A stretch of 64,000 nt of DNA from a virus (IMGVR_UViG_2681813233_000007); one strand, 5' to 3'; shown: positions 22,937 through 46,177, counted from the stretch's first letter. A program made the numbers and translations. Notes: generated by a model not told the origin, from the letters alone.

Positions 22937-23181
22937 AACATAAGCACTGCGAAAAGCTCAATACCAAGCTCAAGTAGCGCCAACGCCCCGAAAAACAACA
23001 CATAGAACAGGCCAATCTCATTCACAGATGGCTGGTGGATCGCACTTAAAGCTATAAGCATCATGTCCTCCAAACAGTTATCAGGAATGATATTAATGTT
23101 TTGTGTTAGAAAATCAATTTTGAATATCTAACCATTTTGATCAATCATAGAAAAATCGCTGAAAAGTAAGAGGCAGCCATC

Positions 23182-23760
23182 ATGCAGAAACAGAGCTACT
23201 GGGAGAAACAGAGACAAAAAGCCATGCAAAGATTGGCTGACCCGGCCTGGCGAGAGGAACAAAGGGCAAAGCGCCTTCAACAAGCTCAACGCCAGCAGCA
23301 GCGAGCGAGAGAAAAAGCCGCATCGCCTGAATATCGGCAAAAGAGAATTGAAAAAGCAAAGCAATATGACCAGCGGAGAAAAGAGAAAGCTGTATCCGCT
23401 CCGTCCAAAAAAACACGCACGTCACGCGGCCTGAAGGGCAGATCACTCACAGCCGATGAACGCCGGATACAGACCGCTATCGGTACTCTCCCCTGCATTG
23501 CCTGCCATATTCACGGGCAACATAGCCCAGTGGTATCCCTGCACCATATCTTCGGGAGAACGGCAGAGAACGCGCATAAATATGTCCTCCCTTTGTGTAA
23601 ATGGCACCACCAGTACGCAGCGCCAGCCGAGGTCCGAGAACAATATCCCTGGCTGGTCCCTGTTCATGCTGATGGAAAAATAGGCGGAAAAGCAGATTTC
23701 ATACGGCACAATGCCGATGAAATGGCGTTGTATCAGATGGCAATTGAATTGATAAATTAG
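23182..23760 (+). CDS. ref: Ref-like HNH endonuclease (recombination enhancement function)
   Basis: Highly charged N-terminal half, C-terminal LPCIACHIHG...SLHHI...LCKWHHQYAAPAEVREQYPWLVPVHADG as in P1 Ref. Confidence 0.8.
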   Translation: MQKQSYWEKQRQKAMQRLADPAWREEQRAKRLQQAQRQQQRAREKAASPEYRQKRIEKAKQYDQRRKEKAVSAPSKKTRTSRGLKGRSLTADERRIQTAIGTLPCIACHIHGQHSPVVSLHHIFGRTAENAHKYVLPLCKWHHQYAAPAEVREQYPWLVPVHADGKIGGKADFIRHNADEMALYQMAIELIN

Positions 23761-24091
23761 TTTTCTAACATTTTAAGTTGAATTGGAAATTTCTCCGATG
23801 TACATTCACTACCGATTGGCACACCGGTCAACTTTTTGAGACAAACTGTTTAGTTTTTCGTATTATTGCCGCCGCCATACCTATGGCGGTGCAATATAGG
23901 TGGCTGAAAAGCCCCCGTTGACTCACGGTGTTCCAGCCTTTATTGCGCCGCCACCAGACCGTGGAACAGTCGATGGCGGCTCCGAAAGCAAGGAGTCACT
24001 ACACTATGAACAACTACAGTCTTTTCCCATCACTCGTCGTCCACCACTCACGCGATAATCTGCATTCTTTACTCGCGCTGGGGGTGTCAAA

Positions 24092-24258
24092 ATGACTGTT
24101 CGCTACCTCAACTTTCAAATCAAGAACATTACTGGCGGTTGCTATGACTGGTTTGTCACTCTCGGAAAAGAAGTGATCACCGGGAAGCTGGATGAAGTGA
24201 AAGCTAAAGCAATGGCCTACGCCTGCAAGCAAGCCCGGAAAAAATCCGCCAAAGCATA
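24092..24258 (+). CDS. small ORF (55 aa), coupled to a 27-codon upstream ORF at 24007..24094
   Basis: Own reading; below the 60-aa track cut-off; stop/start overlap TGATG-like. Confidence 0.3.
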
Positions 24259-24299
24259 AAATACTGACTGTTGCGCCCTGGCATTATCGTGGGGTATAT

Positions 24300-24386
24300 T
24301 TCTACGGCACCTTAGAAAAACGGGTGCCGGGATTGGAACCCCGGATAATGTCAAAGGCGACACAGACGCCGAAAGCGTCTTTTTTT
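24300..24386 (+). ncRNA. candidate small structured RNA ending in an intrinsic terminator (c4-like antisense regulator candidate)
   Basis: Hairpins GGCACC...GGTGCC and CCGGG...CCCGG, then GACGC-CGAAA-GCGTC + T7; near-complement of hairpin 2 at 24489-24500. Confidence 0.3.
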
Positions 24387-24571
24387 GTGTCATGCCATCG
24401 CACAGCCATACGTAGCGTTTAGCTCAGAGATCAATGGTAGTGCTGGCTGGGCTGCCGAAAGGCAGGCCGGTTCCCTTTGACGCCGGTAGTTCCAACCCAG
24501 TCAGTGCTACCGCCATTGAGATTGGAACCTCACGCGGTAGCTCCTTAACTTAGTCAAAGGAGGCTGCCAAT

Positions 24572-24787
24572 ATGGCTACTATCCCCACCCCAACTCATTC
24601 TGAATTTATCTGGCGTTTCTATTCCTGCCAAAAACACCTCTATATCTGCGTCATGGCTGCTACCGAAGCAGAAGCGCGCTCATGCATTCCCGAAGAACCC
24701 TGCATTTTTGCTGCTCGCTTCACTCTTGATGCGATGGAGATCCTCAATTACTGGAATCTGCCGATGAACTGCGTGGAGGTGCACTGA
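24572..24787 (+). CDS. small ORF coupled to antirepressor (icd-like position)
   Basis: AAGGAGG RBS; stop overlaps antirepressor ATG. Confidence 0.45.
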   Translation: MATIPTPTHSEFIWRFYSCQKHLYICVMAATEAEARSCIPEEPCIFAARFTLDAMEILNYWNLPMNCVEVH

Positions 24788-25728
24788 TGAATCTGTCCAT
24801 CTCTCAAAAAGCGACAATGACCAGTATTGAGATCGCGGAACTGGTAGGTAAGCGTCATGATAATGTGAAGCGTACCATTGAAGTATTAACTAAAGGTGGT
24901 GTCATTCAATTTCCTCAAATTGAGGAAATTGAAAATAAACAATCAGTTGGCCCTCGTCGATTTTCCAAGGCTTACATCTTTGAAGGCGAACAAGGCAAGC
25001 GTGACAGTATCATTGTCGTCGCACAGCTTTCTCCCGAATTTACCGCCCGGCTGGTGGACCGCTGGCGCGAACTGGAGAATGCCCGGGTACAGTTAAAATC
25101 AAAAGCCGAAATCCTAGCTGAAATGGCGCAAATGCATCTTGAGCATGAACGCCGGATCAACGCCGTTAATGCCCAGGTAGCCGAAGTATCGGCACAAGTG
25201 TCCAAAGTCGCTGAAACCGTCGAGCAAATCAAGAAAGGCAATATGCCGGAAGGCTACATTGGCTACCGCCAGCTGGCGGCGAAATGCGGCCTGACTGAAG
25301 CCAAATGTCGCAACCTTGTCAACGCTTACCGGATTCCCACCGATACACATGAGTTTTTGACCCCCGATGGCTTGCTTGCGCGACGCTCCATTGTGGCCCT
25401 GGCCCCCTTCCGGAAAGCCTTTAAGCAGGTGATGTCGGAGGCAGAACCACGCAATAAACGCTGGTATCATCCAAAGATGGGGATGTTTCAGGCAATCCAC
25501 CATCCTGTGCCTGAAAGTCCAAAGGCAAACCTGTCGTTGCATACCGCCAGAGAGAGGATTAAAACAGGGTATGCAATCGTATGCCGTCGAGCATCTTGGC
25601 CTGAAGGTGTATGGGTATGGCCCGAAGGTGGATCACGAAAGCACTGGCGCACTATCCGGGATGGGAAAATCCATGCGATTGATTTAGCTCCAGAGGATGT
25701 TGTTGCTACGGACTGGATTGTTAGTTAA
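24787..25728 (+). CDS. Rha-family antirepressor-like protein with C-terminal DUF2829-like domain
   Basis: N-terminal MTSIEIAELVGKRHDNVKRTIEVL (Rha-type); C-terminal IKTGYAIVCRRASWPEG ... VVATDWIVS. Confidence 0.75.
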   Translation: MNLSISQKATMTSIEIAELVGKRHDNVKRTIEVLTKGGVIQFPQIEEIENKQSVGPRRFSKAYIFEGEQGKRDSIIVVAQLSPEFTARLVDRWRELENARVQLKSKAEILAEMAQMHLEHERRINAVNAQVAEVSAQVSKVAETVEQIKKGNMPEGYIGYRQLAAKCGLTEAKCRNLVNAYRIPTDTHEFLTPDGLLARRSIVALAPFRKAFKQVMSEAEPRNKRWYHPKMGMFQAIHHPVPESPKANLSLHTARERIKTGYAIVCRRASWPEGVWVWPEGGSRKHWRTIRDGKIHAIDLAPEDVVATDWIVS

Positions 25729-25736
25729 TTACTGTT

Positions 25737-25758
25737 GCCCCGGCCTGTCCGGGGCTTT
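25737..25758 (+). terminator. hairpin after antirepressor gene
   Basis: GCCCCGG-CCTGT-CCGGGGC + TTT. Confidence 0.4.
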
Positions 25759-26208
25759 AACTACTAAATAACCGGATTCTCCGCACGATGAAGAAAATAG
25801 ATTTCACTTACTCTGCTGCCACAATCCAGCGACGTTTCAGTCTCATAAGGGAAGTGGAACTATCAAAAAACTGGTATCAAATTCTACTGGATGAAGAGTT
25901 TTCACTGATGGTTATAGCATAAAAATTGGCTATGCCGAATGACCGGCACAAGGTCATAGCCAGCCTGGATCTGGTGACAAACAGATACTGGGAATCCGAG
26001 GAACTACTTGAAGTTGGCTTGATACGCGAGATGATAGAACAGGCTGTTCCCCTCCACTTACAGCAACCATAATTGAAAGGTCTTAACGATAGTCTGCCAC
26101 GAATAGTTACTTTCACTGCCTAAAGTTATTTAATTGCATTACAAAGTGTAAATTAGTAACATTAGAATCTCACACAGCACTATAACTATATGTTTTTTAT
26201 GTAAAAGG

Positions 26209-26568
26209 ATGATAATCGTGGCTACTAAAATTAAACTTGAAAACCCTCAAACTGGCGAATCAATCACCGGTTTTTATGGTTTTTCCTGGACTACATTCTT
26301 GTTTGGTGCTTTTCCAGCTTTGTTCAGGAAAGACTTTATAACTTTTATTGGGGTATTCGTAGTGATGCTGATACTGGCATTCCTCACAGCCGGAATTGGC
26401 CCGTGGATTGCCTCATTTATCTGGGCGTTCATGTATAATAAATATTTCACCGTAAATAAGATAAAACAAGGCTTCATTTTTGCTGGTTCTCACACAGAAA
26501 ATGAGTTGGCTGCTAGCAAGCTAGGATTGTCATTAAATCAAAACAACTGCAAAACTATTACCGAGTAA
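26209..26568 (+). CDS. small membrane protein (2 TM helices)
   Basis: ORF track; AT-rich; GTG start 6 nt in is possible. Confidence 0.5.
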   Translation: MIIVATKIKLENPQTGESITGFYGFSWTTFLFGAFPALFRKDFITFIGVFVVMLILAFLTAGIGPWIASFIWAFMYNKYFTVNKIKQGFIFAGSHTENELAASKLGLSLNQNNCKTITE

Positions 26569-26608
26569 TAGCCAAAAAGCAGGCTTAATAGTAAGCCTGC
26601 TATGTCAA

Positions 26609-27493
26609 TCACGAATCTCTCTGACAATTCAGAAACATAAACGCCCGCTTGTCTGTTAAATCCGTAACATAATACTCTCTCATGCCTGTAGGTTTTATTC
26701 TACGAGCATATACAAACTTATGAACTGGTTGTTTTTCCCCATAACTTACATCAGTCCTAAATTCATCAACCACGCTACCATCTTTTTCGACTTCCTTCCT
26801 CACCAGCTTATTTTCTAATGCTGGCTTTAATTCGTCCATGCCACTAAAAGCATCCTGGCCTGTACTATTGCCTCGATTTCCGCGCGGCAAATCCCAGGAG
26901 AAATAAGTGCCATAGTCAGTAATCACACGATCCCAGACTCCGGTATCCCCCATATAGTTAGAGCGCTTTCCATTGTAGGTTACAGCCACTTTACAGGAGT
27001 ACGTTTCTTCATTCCCTCCAGCCTTAGTCGCTGTGGTTGCAGGGATATTTTGGATAGATGCGCTTACGTCATCTTGCGTTAATTCCTCAACTGGAGCAAA
27101 TTCATATATGGGTGTGCCGAGGCTATTTAAATATAACTTATATCTAACCCTAAGCGCACTTCCATCTGAGAATTCATACGTTCCCAGGCATTGGAGCTTA
27201 TTTTTTTCTCTTATCTCATTGATCTGATTATAAGCATCAATTACAGAGATTGCTTCCTGATCGTCCTTCAGCAGTTCATTATAATCATCAATTAACATCT
27301 GTCTGGTTTTAGGGGCATTGCAGTCAATTTTGCTAAAATCATAAGCAAAGGCAAATGTGGGAACAGAGAGAGCAACAACAGTAGCAAGTATTGTTGAGGA
27401 ACATCTTTTTCCATTTTTTATAAAAAACATTTCATTAACTCCATACTTTACCATCTTAGCCGCGAGCGCGGTCCCTAAAACCATTAACTTCAC
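26609..27493 (-). CDS. secreted protein of unknown function (AT-rich gene)
   Basis: Signal peptide MFFIKNGKRCSSTILATVVALSVPTFAFA (true start probably 27430). Confidence 0.5.
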   Translation of the reverse strand: MKLMVLGTALAAKMVKYGVNEMFFIKNGKRCSSTILATVVALSVPTFAFAYDFSKIDCNAPKTRQMLIDDYNELLKDDQEAISVIDAYNQINEIREKNKLQCLGTYEFSDGSALRVRYKLYLNSLGTPIYEFAPVEELTQDDVSASIQNIPATTATKAGGNEETYSCKVAVTYNGKRSNYMGDTGVWDRVITDYGTYFSWDLPRGNRGNSTGQDAFSGMDELKPALENKLVRKEVEKDGSVVDEFRTDVSYGEKQPVHKFVYARRIKPTGMREYYVTDLTDKRAFMFLNCQRDS

Positions 27494-27724
27494 TGCACCG
27501 TTCCTTCATGCAATCAAAATGACTTTTATGTTATAAAAATAATCAGCCAAATCAACATGATTTAGGCCAAATTTCTGTCAAAAAATAAAATCCACAAAAA
27601 GTGGTTGACACTATTTTGGAAATCACAAACTGCACATAATCCATCGCGCTAACGGCTCCCGTTGAAGGTTCTTTTGACGATTAACTTTCAGCCGAAGCGC
27701 GGTAGGGAGTCATAACGCCAAAGC

Positions 27725-27749
27725 AGGCCGCCATGTGCGGCCTTTTTTT
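27725..27749 (+). terminator. intrinsic terminator-like hairpin in the leader of the 27777 operon
   Basis: AGGCCGC-CATGT-GCGGCCT + T6; the track's GTG start at 27735 lies inside it. Confidence 0.45.
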
Positions 27750-27776
27750 GTATCCGTCATCCGTGGAGGAAGGACA

Positions 27777-28430
27777 ATGGAAAAGATCGCAATATTCAGC
27801 CTGACCACCAGCAAGCCTCAAATGCTCACTGCAATACTGAAAGACGGTGCTCTCATTATTAACGAAGTAAAACCCCTTCCCGCGTCAGCATTGGAGCAAA
27901 AGCAAAAAATTCCTCCAGCTATAGCAGCCCTGCGGAAAAGCAAATTTAAGGTACTGGTAGACGAAATTACGCCAACGATCTCCGCTGGCACCGGAGCAAG
28001 CCAGGTGACTCTCAAGACCCGTCATGCCGATGGCAGAGCAGCAATCATCGTCGGGATGGAGAGATACAGAGAGTTAAAACTCCAGAAGCTATTATCCCTG
28101 CCGCAAAATAACAAAGGTGCTTTCGAAATCCCCGACTCCATCGTTGACACCGAATACAACGGTAACGGAGAAGAAGTCTACCGGGTGAACTGGCAGGATA
28201 TCAGGCCGGAACATATTCTGATGATCCTGTGTTGCTACGCGACCGTATACCACAACGTTGCCAGTGCAGATTACGTAGAGCAGATGACCGGTACAGTCGA
28301 GAAAGAGCAAAAAACAGGCATACTCGCTTCGTTCCTTTCCATTATTGGGCATGAAAAAGTTAAAGCAGGCACCTCCCAGCCAAAGTCACTGGCCGGGAAA
28401 GAAGTTGATGAAGATACCGTGATACTTTGA
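27777..28430 (+). CDS. hypothetical protein
   Basis: Start moved to ATG 27777 with GGAGGAAGGA RBS. Confidence 0.5.
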   Translation: MEKIAIFSLTTSKPQMLTAILKDGALIINEVKPLPASALEQKQKIPPAIAALRKSKFKVLVDEITPTISAGTGASQVTLKTRHADGRAAIIVGMERYRELKLQKLLSLPQNNKGAFEIPDSIVDTEYNGNGEEVYRVNWQDIRPEHILMILCCYATVYHNVASADYVEQMTGTVEKEQKTGILASFLSIIGHEKVKAGTSQPKSLAGKEVDEDTVIL

Positions 28431-28565
28431 TCACATTAGTAGCTTTGTTAACTCCCTCAATACCAGGTAGAAGAGTAACAAAAATATTGACGCAAGTATT
28501 TGCGTGGTCAATGAGGCGTTCATAAACAGATCAATAAGCTTTAACAATTCTAGAATAACATCCAT
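28431..28565 (-). CDS. candidate small hydrophobic peptide (44 aa)
   Basis: Own translation MDVILELLKLIDLFMNASLTTQILASIFLLLFYLVLRELTKLLM; GGAG 8 nt upstream; in a 330-bp gap. Confidence 0.3.
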   Translation of the reverse strand: MDVILELLKLIDLFMNASLTTQILASIFLLLFYLVLRELTKLLM

Positions 28566-28758
28566 GTCATTCACTCCGTTTAATTTTTAATCTAATGCCA
28601 GCAAATGAAGCTGGCCCCCGCATAAAGATTAATGAAAGTCACTTGTCACCAGTGAGGGGATTTATGAACCACATCCCCCTGAACTGGTGGCCTGTCTGTT
28701 TCTCGCATTTCACACCCTGCATACAGTTTCCCCCAGGTTATGACTGAGAGGCTTTGTT

Positions 28759-29088
28759 ATGGGCTATAGCAGACTCGACGATAGGTACATTGAAGACGAT
28801 ATTTTTCGTGCGCTGTTTCACCAGGAAATGATTAAGCGGGTATCGGAGTATCACTCTGATAATTTCCAGTACACGATAAAGATTGATGAAGTATATCGTT
28901 CAGACCTTGCAGCCTACAGGGCGTATGGCAATGCAGATTTGCGCTGGGTATTCCGGGTGCTGGTGGGCCATGAGTCAGAAATGGAAGAAATGCCCGCAGG
29001 GACCACGTTAACTCTTCCTGATGTGGCATGGCTGAGGAACAAGATCCGTGATTACGCAAGCGCGAAACCGGAGATAGAAAATGCCTGA
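28759..29088 (+). CDS. hypothetical protein
   Basis: ORF track; 8-nt overlap with next gene. Confidence 0.5.
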   Translation: MGYSRLDDRYIEDDIFRALFHQEMIKRVSEYHSDNFQYTIKIDEVYRSDLAAYRAYGNADLRWVFRVLVGHESEMEEMPAGTTLTLPDVAWLRNKIRDYASAKPEIENA

Positions 29089-30274
29089 TTTCCTGAAAAA
29101 CCAGGACGGGCGCTATATCACTGACGGCCTGTCCTCTAAGGACTTCACGCGTTTATTCGACCTTATCAGGAAAGAACAAACCCGTAAGCGCCGACAAGCT
29201 CACCGGACGCTGACGCCAGGTAGACTGAGGAACAAATCCGCCGAAGATATTCTCAAGTTAGGGAAGAAAAAAGGCGGCACGTTCTTCACGCGAGACGACC
29301 TGAAAGGTTTCGAAAAGCTACGGAGTAAAACGCGCGAAAAATATGACAGCAAGACGGCTGGCATCACATACGCCCAGCTGGTGGCATCCAGCCAGGCAAT
29401 CGATATTAAGCGTGCAAATAACGCCGTGGATGACGGATCTGGTATCAAAAGAGCTACACCCGTATCTCTTCGCCACAATGTGATTAATATCCGCGTAGAA
29501 GCATCGGATATATCCGTCCACCAGCACCATATCGTCCGGATACGCTTTGAAGAATGGGATCAGATGGTTGATGACATCGCAGAAGACGATAAATCAGCTC
29601 TCAAAATCACTAAATCACTGTGCGCCGGGCGAGTGTCTTTCGATTGTGACTGTGGTCGTCATCAATACTGGTATCGTTACATCGCCACTGCGGGTAACTT
29701 TGCCCTGGCACCGCCAAAAGAATACGCCTATCCAAAAGTTCGCAACCCGAAGCTGCAAGGCGTCGCCTGTAAACACGTGATCCACTCAATGACGCGGTTA
29801 CAGTCCGCCAGTTGGCAAATGAGTATTGCTCGTGCGCTACAAAAGGCTGCAACGCAAATTGCATTTGGTGACGATCGCCGCCGTACAACTAAACACTTCT
29901 CAAAAGAAGACGAGAAGGAGTTTAATCGCAATCGTAGCAGTAAAACGAACGTTGAAGCCGCCAAACGCGAATGGAGGCTCTATCAGAAGCGCCAGGCAGC
30001 TTTAAGTACAAAACTGGCAAAGGACAACGGCAAGATCGACAAACTACGTGACCAATTGACCAAGGCCAGAAAGTTGTCAGATGCACAGAAAAAACGGGCG
30101 GCAGCAAAAGAAGCGGCCTTGCAACGTGAGAAACAGAAAAACAAGGAGCTTCAGCAACGCCTTGCCGATCAGTTCGCACTGAAGAAGCAGGCGTTCATTG
30201 ATGCGCTTGTCATGGCTGGAACACCACCAGCACAAGCTGAAAAAATGTTCATGGAGTATGTAAAAAAAGCATAA
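29081..30274 (+). CDS. SWIM zinc-finger protein with basic coiled-coil C-terminus
   Basis: CxC...CxH pattern SFDCDCGRHQYWYRY...ACKHVIH. Confidence 0.55.
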   Translation: MPDFLKNQDGRYITDGLSSKDFTRLFDLIRKEQTRKRRQAHRTLTPGRLRNKSAEDILKLGKKKGGTFFTRDDLKGFEKLRSKTREKYDSKTAGITYAQLVASSQAIDIKRANNAVDDGSGIKRATPVSLRHNVINIRVEASDISVHQHHIVRIRFEEWDQMVDDIAEDDKSALKITKSLCAGRVSFDCDCGRHQYWYRYIATAGNFALAPPKEYAYPKVRNPKLQGVACKHVIHSMTRLQSASWQMSIARALQKAATQIAFGDDRRRTTKHFSKEDEKEFNRNRSSKTNVEAAKREWRLYQKRQAALSTKLAKDNGKIDKLRDQLTKARKLSDAQKKRAAAKEAALQREKQKNKELQQRLADQFALKKQAFIDALVMAGTPPAQAEKMFMEYVKKA

Positions 30275-30307
30275 ACCACACATAGCCTAGTAGTTTATGC
30301 TGGGCTT

Positions 30308-31036
30308 TCATTTTTTTGAAAGATCAACTCCAGTATTATCAAACAAACTGGAAATATCAGACACCAATTTATTAAAATGCTTGTCATCATTATAGAATGA
30401 TGTGCTTTTTATAGCGACTATAAAATCACATAAATCTTGCGGAGATTCAATGCTAACCCCCTTATTTTTATATAGTTCAATAATACTGCCAACATCAGTA
30501 TGCAATAGTTTTATCGCGCCACAAATTTCTCGCTGTTTCGTAACCAAGTCATTAAGTTTATTTTCATTTTCATCTAAGATTTGTTTTGAATATTTAGCGT
30601 CATTGGTTGCTTGATTTAACTTTGTTTTCTTTCTTTGCAATTCTATTCTTTTATCATAATCAGCAACTTCATCTAAATATCTTATTTCAGTGTATAATTT
30701 ACTTGTTAGCTTAGATATCGTCAGTGTGAGAATAGGAGCTAATACAGATGCAAATACTCCATAAATAAATGGGATTACAACGTGACAAACCCACGGGGGT
30801 ACAATCCAATTATCAAAGAACGGTACATTACCACCAACAAAAACAATAGATAATGTATATAGGATGTCGTCCTTTGACTTTAATATAATTAAAATATCCT
30901 TCCAGTTAAGGATTAGAAAAGAAATGACAACATATGCAAAAACCTTGTTAAATATTTTATCTTTTATTATTTCAGAAAATGATTTTAGTTCTGTTTCATT
31001 TATAGACGAATTATCTTTAACTTTTTCTGACATCAT
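30308..31036 (-). CDS. membrane protein of unknown function (AT-rich; Abi/exclusion candidate)
   Basis: Two N-terminal TM helices then Lys/Asn-rich coiled-coil; strongly AT-rich codons. Confidence 0.55.
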   Translation of the reverse strand: MMSEKVKDNSSINETELKSFSEIIKDKIFNKVFAYVVISFLILNWKDILIILKSKDDILYTLSIVFVGGNVPFFDNWIVPPWVCHVVIPFIYGVFASVLAPILTLTISKLTSKLYTEIRYLDEVADYDKRIELQRKKTKLNQATNDAKYSKQILDENENKLNDLVTKQREICGAIKLLHTDVGSIIELYKNKGVSIESPQDLCDFIVAIKSTSFYNDDKHFNKLVSDISSLFDNTGVDLSKK

Positions 31037-31057
31037 AGCTTATCCTGATTACTTTTA

Positions 31058-31258
31058 TTATGGATAGTTAAAAGATTCAACAGGTGATGGTGGCTGAATT
31101 GGGTAATGTTTCTTCTCGTACTCCTCAATGAGAAGACTCATAACCTCAAAGAAATCACCTTCCGGAGTATTCATTTCCGGTTCGTTATCGAACATCGGTT
31201 CGACCGCACGCAGTGCGGCCTCATAATCTTGTTCTGTACGGATAGGTTTAATGTTCAT
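31058..31258 (-). CDS. small ORF resembling the N-terminal domain of long HigA-type antitoxins (no HTH)
   Basis: IKPIRTEQDYEAALRAVEPMF...EGDFFEVMSLLIEEYEKKHYPI. Confidence 0.35.
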   Translation of the reverse strand: MNIKPIRTEQDYEAALRAVEPMFDNEPEMNTPEGDFFEVMSLLIEEYEKKHYPIQPPSPVESFNYP

Positions 31259-31314
31259 TAATTACAAAGGAAAGCCCACTTGCTAAGTGGGCTTTTTGTA
31301 TGTGTTTTACTATA

Positions 31315-31653
31315 TCAGGCTGCTTTTTTATTCAGGTTCCGCTGAGAAATAAATTTTTCAGCAGTATTGATACGACTTAACTCTTCCTGAACGCGCATAT
31401 CATTTTCGACTTCCCACAGATCTACTGCGGTCTGAAGATTAATCCAAAAATCTACAGAAGTATCGAATGCTTTTGCCAGGCGATATGCCATATCCATCGT
31501 TAGCTTACGATTATTATTAACAAGAGCACTTACGGTGTTACGATGAACATGAAGTATTTCTGCTAACTCGTTGATCTTCAGCTCTAACGGCTCCAGGTAT
31601 TCGTACAGCAGGATATCACCTACGGTCGTCGGTTTTCTGGTTGCCTGTTTCAT
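31315..31653 (-). CDS. higA: HigA antitoxin (XRE-family HTH)
   Basis: HTH core ELAEILHVHRNTVSALVNNNRKLTMDMAYRLAKAFDTSVDFWINLQ; downstream of higB. Confidence 0.8.
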   Translation of the reverse strand: MKQATRKPTTVGDILLYEYLEPLELKINELAEILHVHRNTVSALVNNNRKLTMDMAYRLAKAFDTSVDFWINLQTAVDLWEVENDMRVQEELSRINTAEKFISQRNLNKKAA

Positions 31654-31723
31654 TTTTTGCCCTTACTAGCGTGCGTATTAAGTGGACTCTGGTCAGAACC
31701 CGGTCCGTAACCGGGTATCTGTT

Positions 31724-32026
31724 TTAGTATTTGTGAGGGTCGAGATACAAGTCCTCGGCCTTTCCGTTAACCCACTTAAAAATTAACCTATATTGCTTAT
31801 TCACCCTTACTGATGAATAGCCATTTAGCTTCCCTGACAGTTCCTCATACCGATTACCTGGTGGTGATCTTAAATCCTTACAGGTAGTTGCGGCATTGAT
31901 AATGTCCAACTTCCGTGACAATGTCATATGAATATCAGGAGGTATCTTTCTATGTGGTGTTGAAAATTCAAAAAAATCATCAAGCCACGCATCCCTGAAA
32001 TCCTTTATGTTAATTTTTTTGGTCAT
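31724..32026 (-). CDS. higB: HigB toxin (RelE/ParE superfamily)
   Basis: SPPGNRYEELSGKLNGYSSVRVNKQYRLIFKWVNG...DPHKY. Confidence 0.8.
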   Translation of the reverse strand: MTKKINIKDFRDAWLDDFFEFSTPHRKIPPDIHMTLSRKLDIINAATTCKDLRSPPGNRYEELSGKLNGYSSVRVNKQYRLIFKWVNGKAEDLYLDPHKY

Positions 32027-32176
32027 TAGTCATTTGATCCTCCGTGATGATTACCGAATGCCATAACTATAGCGCACCGTTGCACTGTGCGCAAGTGCAT
32101 TTTATGAATTCCCCCTCCTTCATCCAAAATCACAATCTCCCGAAAATCTTCCTTTCGATACCTGACAGATCGACCT

Positions 32177-32980
32177 TTGAGGATGCTTATGGGCCGTTTT
32201 GACGAATGGTTTGCTGACGATGCAAACCTGGCAAGTAAGGAGTCAGAACATGACAGCACGCAGAGAGAAACGCCAGCGCCGATTGAAGCGAATGCAGGAG
32301 GCGCGCCGGAACATGGCAATACCGGTTCGGATTCATTCAGCATTCTGGAAGAGCAACCCGCCGCCAAAGCTGATAGCCATGATAATTTTGCTGATAGCAA
32401 CGGTGGCCTTACTCCGGATGCTGGCGAATCAGATATAGCCATACTTCCATCTTCCCTGGCTGGCAGAGAACCGACTCCACAGTTAAAAGCACGCTATAAC
32501 GGGCATAAAGCCTTTAACGACCAAATCCGCGCAGACTGGATGCTGATTATTGAATCCAGCCCAGACGCGTTTCAGGCTCTCTTATATCGACCAGATGTTG
32601 GCACATATGGGGTAGTCAGCGACGAAACAGGAGAAGAGTCATTCACTGAACTGGATAACAACCAACGCGAACTGACTTACCAGGAACCTGAAATCGTTTA
32701 TGTGCTGGATAACCCTGACGGGCGTGACTCTTTCCATGCGATTGACGCAGACGGTGAGCAGGATGGCTTAACCGATGATGTTCTGATTCTGCGTATTGCA
32801 GCAAATAACGTCCCCGTCGGCTCAATTCTTGAATGGAATGAAGAGATGGTAAACGGCGTAGCGCGCCGCTGGTGGTACGTGCACCGTATTTTTAGCTACG
32901 GCACACAGCATGTTGGTTCGCTTTACTACTGCATACCTGCCAGGAATTTTGATACGACTCAAAACGGAGTGATCGAATGA
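32177..32980 (+). CDS. hypothetical acidic protein
   Basis: ORF track; first gene of a 4-gene plus-strand operon. Confidence 0.5.
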   Translation: MRMLMGRFDEWFADDANLASKESEHDSTQRETPAPIEANAGGAPEHGNTGSDSFSILEEQPAAKADSHDNFADSNGGLTPDAGESDIAILPSSLAGREPTPQLKARYNGHKAFNDQIRADWMLIIESSPDAFQALLYRPDVGTYGVVSDETGEESFTELDNNQRELTYQEPEIVYVLDNPDGRDSFHAIDADGEQDGLTDDVLILRIAANNVPVGSILEWNEEMVNGVARRWWYVHRIFSYGTQHVGSLYYCIPARNFDTTQNGVIE

Positions 32981-33744
32981 CTTCAAATAAAACCCTCCTG
33001 GCGCGAACAGGTGAATGGCAAACCTCACGCACAGGAAAATTCCAGACCACGGGCTTTGAAAACGTGGATAACGCGTTTGCGACGCTAATCAGCAACATTT
33101 TTTCTGATATCTTACTGGTGGCCCCCGCGCCGGAAGAAAAACGCTTTGCGTCATTCCTGAATCGTCCACCAGCAGAGCGTGTCTATGTGGCCCGTTTCGA
33201 CAATGCGATCGAGTTTCTTAAAGCAGTTCGTCGCGCAAATGCCGGGCAAGGGAGAAAACCTGAAAACCAGAACATTAACCGGGATGCTCTCCCCCTGGTC
33301 AATATCTCACGCACTATGGATATCAATTATATCAACGATGATCAGCAGATTGACCGCAAAAAAGTAGCCAGTTTTTGCGAACCGGATACCGGAATGCCTT
33401 TAGCAGAACTGGAATACACCCAGGCCATTCTGACGTATGACGTTACGTTAATGGCAACTGATAAAGCGACCATGAGTCTGATGTGTAATTCGCTGGGCGC
33501 ACGGCTTCGCCTGATGACAGGTACACAATTTGAAGCAACCACTCACCTTGTTCGTGTCCCGGTCCCGCTGATTTGCTCGATACAGGATGCCAAAGAAGTC
33601 GGCTTTACGGATGTTTCAGCACCAATTGGAGAAGAGCGTATTTATGCCACACAAGCGCCGATAAGTGTGATTGCAGACGTGATCACAACATGGGAGTTGG
33701 ACGCAAAACGTATTATTACCGAAACCTCGATATCTATGGGGTGA
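32977..33744 (+). CDS. hypothetical protein
   Basis: ORF track. Confidence 0.5.
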   Translation: MTSNKTLLARTGEWQTSRTGKFQTTGFENVDNAFATLISNIFSDILLVAPAPEEKRFASFLNRPPAERVYVARFDNAIEFLKAVRRANAGQGRKPENQNINRDALPLVNISRTMDINYINDDQQIDRKKVASFCEPDTGMPLAELEYTQAILTYDVTLMATDKATMSLMCNSLGARLRLMTGTQFEATTHLVRVPVPLICSIQDAKEVGFTDVSAPIGEERIYATQAPISVIADVITTWELDAKRIITETSISMG

Positions 33745-45626: not shown

Positions 45627-46019
45627 TCATTGTCGCCATGCATTTTTTAACTCAGGAATATCTGCCATTTCAATTAACTTGCGAAGTCCAGCACTGACTT
45701 TCCCATTGCCAACCATAGCAAGCCAATCTCTTACAGCTTTCGGCATGTAGAGCGTTGCAGTTACCGGCTCTTCAACCCTGGCAGGACATCCGCATACAGG
45801 CCATTTAATTGATTCCATAACTTCGGATGCCGGGGTGAGGGCGGGGACATTGAGTATATATCTACCAGAAAACTGGATAACGATCCGTTCAGCGAGCGAG
45901 AGTATCTCACTTTCGGCAAGAATTGATGCCAACTGCGCCTCAACAAGAAAGCGACTTGTTGTGTTCAGAGAGTGGCTCTTAGCGCCATTTTTATACGAAA
46001 CAAAGATTCGATACGCCAT
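45627..46019 (-). CDS. hypothetical protein
   Basis: ORF track; operator-like box just upstream at 46035-46044. Confidence 0.5.
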   Translation of the reverse strand: MAYRIFVSYKNGAKSHSLNTTSRFLVEAQLASILAESEILSLAERIVIQFSGRYILNVPALTPASEVMESIKWPVCGCPARVEEPVTATLYMPKAVRDWLAMVGNGKVSAGLRKLIEMADIPELKNAWRQ

Positions 46020-46177
46020 AACTCTAATGATTTGTGTTAGAAAACTAAAATTAAATCACATAACAACATGTGTGTTAATAGATTTTATTTTACTAAACCT
46101 ATTGACTAAATCACAAAGTAGGTATTGTTAGCCCGTCAAAAGAACCTTCACGCCGCGCCCGAATTTAGGGCTTAACC

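Follow-up and report, generated by a model that had tools for sequence, protein, structure and literature searches.

The DNA analyzed here is a stretch of 64,000 nucleotides (nt) from a virus (IMGVR_UViG_2681813233_000007), hereafter the window. Its interval 25766-32026 is probably a mosaic of backbone tail and maturation genes with three small cargo slots, not a single foreign island. The true accessory content is ~3.3 kb, located in three slots between late transcription units. Taken as it was posed in an earlier note, which described the interval from the sequence alone as one AT-rich accessory island, the finding amounts to nothing unusual, with known backbone genes and hotspot cargo interspersed and most of them annotated in phage D6 already. 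The new items are the map of the slots, the diversifying orf73 family, the Cys2-Cys-His site in gp25, and, above all, the leader RNA of mat.

The region 24500-33500 is 95.2% identical in nucleotides to Escherichia phage D6 (MF356679), and the surroundings of the finding reach 99.9% identity in the best plasmid match (NZ_AP018804). The matched plasmids are ~90 kb in size, non-mobilisable, and derived from E. coli and Salmonella. Judging from these identities, the element is a D6-like phage-plasmid, a kind common in E. coli and Salmonella of livestock and humans. The D6 record gives the order icd, anti-repressor, pmgF-like gene, orf80, simB-like gene (minus strand), mat, 26 (baseplate), and 25 (tail), and continues with orf73 (minus strand), two HigA genes, one RelE/HigB gene, and genes 7, 24, 6, and 5. 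Gene order and sequence are thus as in D6 orf70-orf81, where most of the stretch is named already. The window departs from D6 in a nonsense codon within pmgF and in a deletion of ~200 bp, which takes out the helix-turn-helix (HTH) of orf72.

Backbone genes and cargo slots

The genes in the interval are as follows.

25788-26072, plus strand: pmgF-like gene (phrog_7349), disrupted by a nonsense codon (GAA to TAA at 25923-25925)
26209-26568, plus strand: orf80, small membrane protein of 119 amino acids (aa) with hydrophobic residues 37-74 (phrog_4915); slot 1 cargo
26609-27427, minus strand: secreted SimB-domain protein, with an open reading frame (ORF) extending to GTG at 27493; slot 1 cargo
27777-28430, plus strand: mat, maturation control, homologue of P1 mat (phrog_1837); backbone
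28431-28574, minus strand: 47-aa hydrophobic ORF in slot 2, conserved in 22 D6-clade loci
28759-29088, plus strand: homologue of gene 26, baseplate wedge, T4 gp53-like in P1 (phrog_1269); backbone
29081-30274, plus strand: homologue of gene 25, "tail stability" (phrog_1722), with the Cys2-Cys-His motif encoded at 29645-29776 and then a C-terminal coiled coil; backbone
30308-31036, minus strand: orf73, 242 aa (phrog_8191), 29% GC; slot 3 cargo
31058-31258, minus strand: 66-aa remnant of a HigA-type antitoxin, D6 orf72, with the N-terminal domain retained (phrog_10398)
31315-31653, minus strand: HigA antitoxin with an HTH (TIGR02607, E 8e-30)
31724-32026, minus strand: HigB toxin, RelE-like (PF05015, E 4e-35)

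ORF calling recovered every ORF listed in the earlier note, each with its coordinates and strand, and its assignment of higB and higA stands with the profile matches given above. The nonsense-disrupted pmgF, the 66-aa antitoxin remnant, and the structured leader of mat were absent from that note.

In tblastn searches against the complete P1 genome (NC_005856, locus L003), Mat, gp26, and gp25 are 33% (E 8e-36), 41% (E 8e-19), and 56% (E 6e-124) identical to their P1 counterparts, respectively. Genes 7, 24, and 6 also match P1. For Mat, gp26, and gp25, there are matches to PHROG tail and baseplate families. The statement that the genes of the interval have no P1 backbone counterpart is therefore wrong for five of them, namely mat, 26, 25, pmgF, and the gene with the SimB domain. 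The GC contents of mat, 26, and 25 are 48-49%, against 46.8% for the whole window, whereas the AT-rich shift is indeed found in the flanking genes (29-41%).

The genes of the window were mapped onto each of 87 loci encoding gp25 homologues, among which 32 constitute, with the window, the D6 clade (33). The genes mat-26-25-7-24-6 are syntenic in the 87 loci, mat being next to 26 in most clades, and are tightly packed in a clade of ~64% identity. The order 26-25-7-24-6-5 is kept in all 87 loci and P1, with no interruption in the D6 clade other than the cargo between 25 and 7. In P1, these six genes are contiguous and form one late operon after LP26, with genes 25 and 7 four bases apart, and mat has its own late promoter. 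The layouts differ in that P1 mat adjoins ref, P1 25 adjoins 7, and P1 simB is accompanied by simA and simC.

The published roles of the P1 genes agree with this picture. P1 gp26, a wedge protein similar to T4 gp53, is part of the baseplate model from cryo-EM (bioRxiv 10.1101/2025.07.21.665459; PMC9024508), while the signals of gp25 and gp7 in virion mass spectrometry are weak and neither protein has been assigned a role (PMC9024508). P1 mat, 25, and 26 count among the known essential genes, their need for virion assembly being known from amber mutants, whereas simABC and pmgF are non-essential (PMC10695390, and work cited therein). In a comparison of 77 P1-like elements, gp7, gp25, and gp26 are among the "extremely conserved" genes, whereas simABC and rlfAB-pmgF are among the low-GC "highly variable regions" (PMC9603915). 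The P1 orthologues, the backbone GC, the synteny, and the published essential or structural roles together indicate that the central 2.5 kb (mat-26-25) is P1/D6 backbone. What had been described as a SWIM operon of unassigned function among exclusion or abortive-infection cargo is actually P1 mat, 26, and 25 of the late morphogenesis backbone, and the proposed comparison of the same locus gives mat-26-25 orthologues, with a virion-associated role, in all related phage-plasmids.

Nucleotide comparison gives sharp slot boundaries at ~26059 and ~27451, 30267-30269, and 32127, with internal junctions in slot 3 at 30967/31068-31077 and 31265. Slot 1 (26059-27450), between pmgF and mat, holds orf80 and the gene of the SimB-domain secreted protein; slot 2, between mat and 26, holds the 47-aa membrane ORF; and slot 3 (30270-32126), between 25 and 7, holds orf73, the orphaned HigA N-domain, and higBA. 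The cargo breakpoints flank mat-26-25 on either side and do not lie around one island. One horizontally acquired AT-rich island spanning 25766-32026, with the SWIM operon as its defence or exclusion cargo, would suit the low GC at both interval ends, the membrane and secreted products, the toxin-antitoxin (TA) module, and the CxC...CxH motif of gp25, whose molecular role in P1 is undefined (PMC9024508), but it is highly improbable and, by synteny and homology, already refuted for the central 2.5 kb, since mat, 26, and 25 have backbone GC and clear P1 orthologues, are syntenic in every P1-like clade sampled, are essential or structural in P1 (PMC10695390; bioRxiv 10.1101/2025.07.21.665459), and have the cargo breakpoints on either side.

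The idea of variable cargo holds for the slots, though not for mat-26-25: orf80 with the SimB-like gene, and orf73 with the HigA remnant and higBA, are replaced at the same sites in D6-clade relatives. Across the D6 clade, the 25/7 interval measures between 309 and 2893 bp and has at least eight types of content, and the pmgF/mat and mat/26 intervals are likewise variable. Slot 1 holds orf80 and the SimB-like gene in 16 of the 33 D6-clade loci, genes of a 159-aa and a 207-aa secreted protein in eight loci, and, as further alternatives, the gene of a 291-aa secreted protein, that of a 256-aa protein, or an extra 4-kb block. Slot 2 is mostly 331 bp long with a hydrophobic minus-strand ORF of 47-53 aa; elsewhere, it is occupied by HigBA-like or RelE-like TA pairs or by an insertion sequence. 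The GC contents of the cargo are 29-41% (orf80, 38%; the SimB-like gene, 40%; orf73, 29%; higBA, 38-41%). Among PLSDB plasmid records, gp25 is matched in 283 (106 at ≥90% identity), this orf73 allele in 71, orf80 with the SimB-like gene in 56, and higBA in 91. The cargo segments are thus found in 56-91 of ~106 D6-clade plasmids.

The slots resemble the hotspots of temperate phages (e.g., P2/P4) and the "highly variable regions" of P1-like elements, in which fixed sites are occupied by one or another cargo of low GC, with TA modules and membrane proteins among it, and the sim and pmgF regions are likewise on the list of variable regions of P1-like elements (PMC9603915). However, the 25/7 and mat/26 slots are outside the eight regions described for P1 proper and are found in the D6 clade only, each late unit flanking a D6-clade slot has its own promoter-like box, and no cargo here matches a validated defence system. 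The map tells where D6-like phage-plasmids exchange cargo, and it gives a place to seek new exclusion or defence genes.

The candidate mat leader RNA and the proposed late transcription units

The candidate regulatory elements are as follows.

27620-27640, plus strand: D6-type late-promoter-like box AAATCACAAAC-TGCA-CATAAT, ahead of mat, at the place taken in P1-clade relatives by a canonical P1 late promoter
27645-27719, plus strand: candidate mat leader RNA, a 75-nt three-way junction with an outer stem, a hairpin with the conserved loop CUUUUGAC, and a short hairpin CCG-AAGCG-CGG
27725-27750, plus strand: intrinsic terminator AGGCCGC-CATGT-GCGGCCT with T7, between the leader and the mat ribosome-binding site
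28708-28728, plus strand: late-promoter-like box ATTTCACACCC-TGCA-TACAGT, upstream of 26 and the weakest of the four boxes
30284-30306: hairpin between the convergent stops of 25 and orf73, at the left edge of slot 3, where homology to other cargo types ends at ~30267-30269
31269-31297: hairpin or terminator at the junction of higBA and the orf72 remnant (sub-boundary 31265)
32128-32148, plus strand: late-promoter-like box AAATCACAATC-TCCC-GAAAAT, directly upstream of 7 and exactly at the right edge of slot 3 (32127)
62042, plus strand: box of the AAATCACAAAC-N4-CATAAT type, preceding the homologue of P1 gene R, at the position of LPs in P1

At least seven clades of P1-like elements carry the leader element ahead of mat, and the layout of leader and terminator also precedes mat genes whose products are only 35-56% identical. 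A GC-rich hairpin with a T-run is kept at the terminator position in all clades examined, including P1. Individual folding gives the same three-way junction in most clades, and in the window this fold is the minimum free energy structure (z = -2.4). A covariance model seeded with three D6-clade leaders gave full-length matches precisely in front of mat in five other clades and essentially nothing else in 613 kb. In the leader alignment, 85% of the cells pair, versus 72% in shuffles, and compensatory changes occur in 14 of 25 pairs (shuffle mean, 5.9; none of 500 shuffles reaches the observed value), the alignment being fitted to the covariance model, which favours structure. The signal collapses when the pairing partners are slid (covariation score 0.40 versus ≤0.09).

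The P1-type and Serratia-type leaders were not reached by a second covariance model (R2), the P1-type ones being too diverged for it, and their equivalence with the others rests on de novo folding and architecture, not on one model. RNAalifold gives the same architecture de novo for the P1-type leaders, with four compensatory pairs, whereas MAFFT and RNAalifold applied over all leader types give no structure, the stems being out of register. A permissive E-value scan of 23000-33500 with Rfam found nothing at 27600-27760; its only matches are C4, isrK, and c4-a1b1 in immI and a weak SL1 (24826-24935, minus strand, within ant).

In P1 (NC_005856), the same leader and terminator follow LPmat at ~2697-2831. 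Homology to other Mat proteins begins there at the ATG at ~2829 (MDKKI...), while the annotated start at 2716 is inside the leader RNA. The P1 mat start at 2716 is therefore probably misannotated, the first 38 annotated codons being the leader region. The leader would give a classic model phage a layer of regulation that had gone unrecognised.

Attenuators and the put-type antitermination RNAs of HK022 are promoter-proximal structured leaders that are followed by terminators. The mat leader resembles them in that a conserved structure lies between promoter and terminator ahead of a gene: it begins a few nucleotides past the promoter-like box, and its terminator precedes the first gene of the late unit. 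It differs from them in the three-way junction with the conserved CUUUUGAC/CUUUUCAA loop and in belonging to no Rfam family. A pairing that would alternate between terminator and antiterminator was searched for in the leader by eye, and none was found. The leader would most likely serve as a cis-acting attenuator or antiterminator, which could be bound by a late phage factor via the CUUUUGAC/CUUUUCAA loop, or as a late small RNA, which could gate the expression of mat, the "maturation control" gene. We regard two separate proposals as about as likely as not: that the leader with its terminator is a regulatory RNA of P1-like phage-plasmids not described before, and that orf73, described later, may be the first member of a new family of anti-phage effectors that are membrane-anchored and TA-associated.

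A 17-nt exact copy of the arm and loop of the leader hairpin (TGAAGGTTCTTTTGACG), preceded by GCGCGG, is located at ~46132-46151 (minus strand), upstream of a 130-aa ORF (45627-46019, minus strand) without a P1 match. This copy may be a common binding site or an RNA-RNA target.

A search with a regular expression and a position weight matrix (PWM) for P1-type late promoters gave one convincing match only. It is a perfect motif, AAGTGACTT-TCAT-TAATCT at 28626-28644, with the best PWM score in the window (17.8), but it lies on the "wrong" (minus) strand. A D6-specific box was therefore sought. The relaxed consensus of this box has exactly four matches in the 64 kb, all on the plus strand and upstream of mat, 26, 7, and R, versus 0.135 expected by chance, although it was derived from the same four sites and the statistics are partly circular. 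The box of gene 7 is also found in the minimal 309-bp spacer of locus L031. The AAATCACAAAC-N4-CATAAT box is probably a D6-type late promoter, distinct from the AAGTGACTT box of P1.

The mat, 26, and 25 genes had been read as a three-gene plus-strand operon. They are probably not one unit, as mat and 26 are 331 bp apart and the spacer contains both an ORF on the opposite strand and a promoter-like box of its own. Since the positions of the boxes match those of LPmat, LP26, and LPs in P1, three separate late units with cargo gaps are supported. The first would consist of a promoter, the structured leader, the terminator, and mat; the second, of a promoter, gene 26 for the baseplate wedge, and gene 25; and the third, of a promoter and genes 7-24-6-5. 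The gaps between these units would serve in the D6 clade as cargo slots exchangeable by recombination, and the cargo could be swapped without disturbing late expression because it is mostly on the opposite strand.

The Cys2-Cys-His site of gp25

The CxCx38CxH motif of gp25 (C189, C191, C230, and H232, in the context FDCDCGRHQYW...GVACKHV) is invariant in 33 homologues with identities down to 44%. It conforms to the SWIM signature CxCxnCxH with n = 38, a spacer longer than is usual for SWIM. The SWIM zinc finger proposed in the earlier note is thus borne out as a motif but not as a family assignment: Pfam SWIM (PF04434) does not match gp25 at E ≤ 0.01 nor even at E ≤ 10, and precomputed Pfam domains are found in none of the 120 listed gp25 homologues. 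A profile search of gp25 against PDB sequences gave coiled-coil noise only, while the AlphaFold2 (AF2) model is confident, with a predicted local distance difference test score (pLDDT) of 83 and a predicted template modelling score of 0.72. It is probable that gp25 carries a metal-binding SWIM-like module without being filed as a member of the SWIM family. That gp25 is a genuine SWIM-type zinc finger protein, acting as a non-structural assembly or regulatory factor that binds nucleic acid or protein and not a structural tail protein, is conceivable, though we lean away from it. The invariant site gives a testable feature to an essential P1 gene to which no molecular role is assigned.

Contents of the cargo slots

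At the left flank of slot 1, both halves of the disrupted pmgF match P1 pmgF in tblastn. An undisrupted pmgF (94-112 aa) is found in D6 and 21 related loci, and the lack of the gene in some relatives (L005 and L010) is in line with its being dispensable. The orf80 product has no Pfam, PADLOC, or P1 match. The SimB-like protein probably starts at MFFIKNGKR and consists of a Sec-type leader with a signal peptide ending ...PTFAFA|YD, the SimB domain, and a unique C-terminal domain of ~155 aa. Residues 42-137 are 49% identical to P1 SimB over 96 residues (E 4e-27), and the end of the hydrophobic leader, AFA|Y, is aligned with the leader of P1 SimB. The phrog_13054 alignment begins at residue 22. 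A SimC-like C-terminus was ruled out, the best E value for the last 155 residues being 5.6, and a Pfam match to Lactamase_B_2 (E 0.007, below the cut-off) was regarded as noise.

Both this locus and P1 simABC have a SimB domain with a signal peptide, and both run leftward from a low-GC region near immI. The window differs in lacking SimA and SimC, in the fusion of SimB to the unique ~155-aa domain, and in position, the locus being in the pmgF-mat gap here and upstream of c4 in P1. The boundary of slot 1 at 27451 falls within the 5' extension of the SimB-like ORF. This extension (27451-27493, minus strand; MKLMVLGTALAA...) belongs to the conserved flank and resembles the signal peptide of the 207-aa alternative cargo (MKDGVVKLRVLGAALAA...; L008/L013-type loci), which suggests that cassettes are exchanged in slot 1 behind a shared promoter and leader.

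In slot 3, the scores of HigB and HigA are above the curated cut-offs of the profiles, and higB precedes higA on the minus strand; the strong profile matches and the toxin-first order are common to type II HigB/HigA modules. The cassette upstream of orf73 varies with the locus: a PF09907 HigB with full-length orf72 (N-domain and HTH), a YgjN/YgjM-like pair, or, as in the window, a PF05015 HigB with HigA. The 66-aa ORF lost its HTH, located at residues 63-115 in D6 orf72, through the ~200-bp deletion, and the PF09907 HigB with which it would pair is missing from the window. It matches the N-terminal region of HigA antitoxins of the YgjM/PD-lambda-2B type. Unlike in usual HigBA loci, two Hig families have succeeded one another at one site, leaving an N-domain without HTH or toxin. 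The PF05015 HigB with its HigA would have displaced the PF09907 HigB and orf72, and the 66-aa ORF would be the scar of this cassette swap, possibly kept as an orphan antitoxin that may still neutralise the lost PF09907-type toxin.

The 66-aa ORF also matches the PADLOC model PD-Lambda-2_B at positions 1-65 of 402. PD-lambda-2 consists of a HigB-like A, a HigA-HTH-peptidase B, and a P4-antitoxin-like C protein (PMC9519451). Membership was rejected because the ORF shares only the common HigA-type N-terminus, without the peptidase domain and without a match to A or C.

The orf73 product is predicted to comprise an inner-membrane hairpin, a long coiled-coil helix, and a small helical C-terminal domain, and its AF2 model is all-helical (pLDDT 75). 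Its alleles (242-263 aa) are 35-57% identical to the copy in the window, while their flanks are 98-100% identical; the N-terminal membrane hairpin is conserved, and the coiled coil and the C-terminal domain are diversified. Against PDB, a profile search gave coiled-coil noise and Foldseek found no relative. A word-index search gave close relatives only, and an exhaustive profile search found 43 cluster representatives among 1.84 billion proteins. Neither orf73 nor the hig genes have a P1 match in tblastn. One distant family member is an opposite-strand moron in a lambdoid prophage, another is directly 3' of a TacA1/GNAT-toxin pair (L099:3462-5120), and a third has a WYL regulator, an unannotated protein of 1090 aa, and GmrSD as neighbours within an integrase-bearing element (L097:7001-14696). 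These contexts suggest that the family is cargo of mobile elements and may be functionally linked to TA modules. The family is compact, strongly diversifying, and unannotated, with a recurrent TA neighbourhood.

The SimB-like protein and the orf73 product would act at the envelope of the lysogen, excluding or aborting superinfecting phages, and HigBA would stabilise the plasmid prophage through post-segregational killing. In addition to the circularity of the box statistics, several points weigh against the picture of late units that frame exclusion cargo. No site for a P1-type C1 operator (ATTGCTCTAATAAATTT, up to three mismatches) is found in the window, and the minus-strand motif at 28626-28644 precedes the 47-aa ORF and points away from the tail genes. 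No simA or simC match is found in the window by tblastn against P1, as also stated in PMC6799933, and SimC is the key exclusion protein of P1, while SimB is merely "accessory" in P1 itself, with no role assigned. No PADLOC model matches orf73, orf80, or the SimB-like protein at E ≤ 0.01. The contexts of the orf73 family are mixed, including one chromosomal singleton, and orf73 is placed downstream of a hairpin and the antitoxin remnant.

Alternatively, the cargo may have no anti-phage role, higBA being a pure addiction module and orf73, orf80, and the SimB-like gene being selfish or neutral passengers or encoding host-serving envelope proteins. The absence of PADLOC matches is in line with this explanation, as are the near-invariance of higBA (87 of 91 plasmid copies ≥99% identical), which is expected of a maintenance module, and its published treatment as a post-segregational killing system (PMC6799933). 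However, the orf73 alleles have strongly diverged between identical flanks, and secreted proteins have been serially replaced in slot 1 behind a conserved leader. Such diversification and replacement are typical of conflict-driven selection, and the SimB domain belongs to the superimmunity locus of P1. We thus consider a cargo without anti-phage role rather doubtful.

A different reading takes orf73 as the third component of the adjacent TA module, that is, a membrane-anchored sensor or effector of a tripartite abortive-infection system with a logic like that of PD-lambda-2 or CmdTAC. TA-derived tripartite defence systems are known (PMC9519451). Every D6-clade orf73 is directly downstream of, and co-oriented with, a Hig-type cassette of one of the three kinds, and the distant member in L099 directly follows a TA pair. 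Contrarily, the TA cassette occurs without orf73 in L014 and L015, a 98-aa gene takes the place of orf73 in L085, and other family members have no recognisable TA neighbour. In the window, moreover, a terminator-like hairpin lies between higBA and the orf72 remnant with orf73, and the co-location is perhaps just typical of hotspot cargo. A tripartite system is unlikely, and exclusion or abortion of superinfecting phages at the lysogen envelope is the preferred role for the orf73 product.

Further cargo variants are found in related loci. A ~4-kb insertion between pmgF and mat (L027:3617-7696) encodes proteins of 101, 361, and 209 aa. Others are located at L026:10192-13084 and L033:10432-10971, and a 179-aa protein in the 25/7 slot is among the variants. 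Upstream of icd and ant, the immI region of the window contains a second C4-like match (23879-23958, plus strand; 40 bits, below the gathering score), an isrK-like RNA (24307-24385, plus strand; 63 bits), and a C4 antisense RNA (24430-24517, plus strand; 77 bits).

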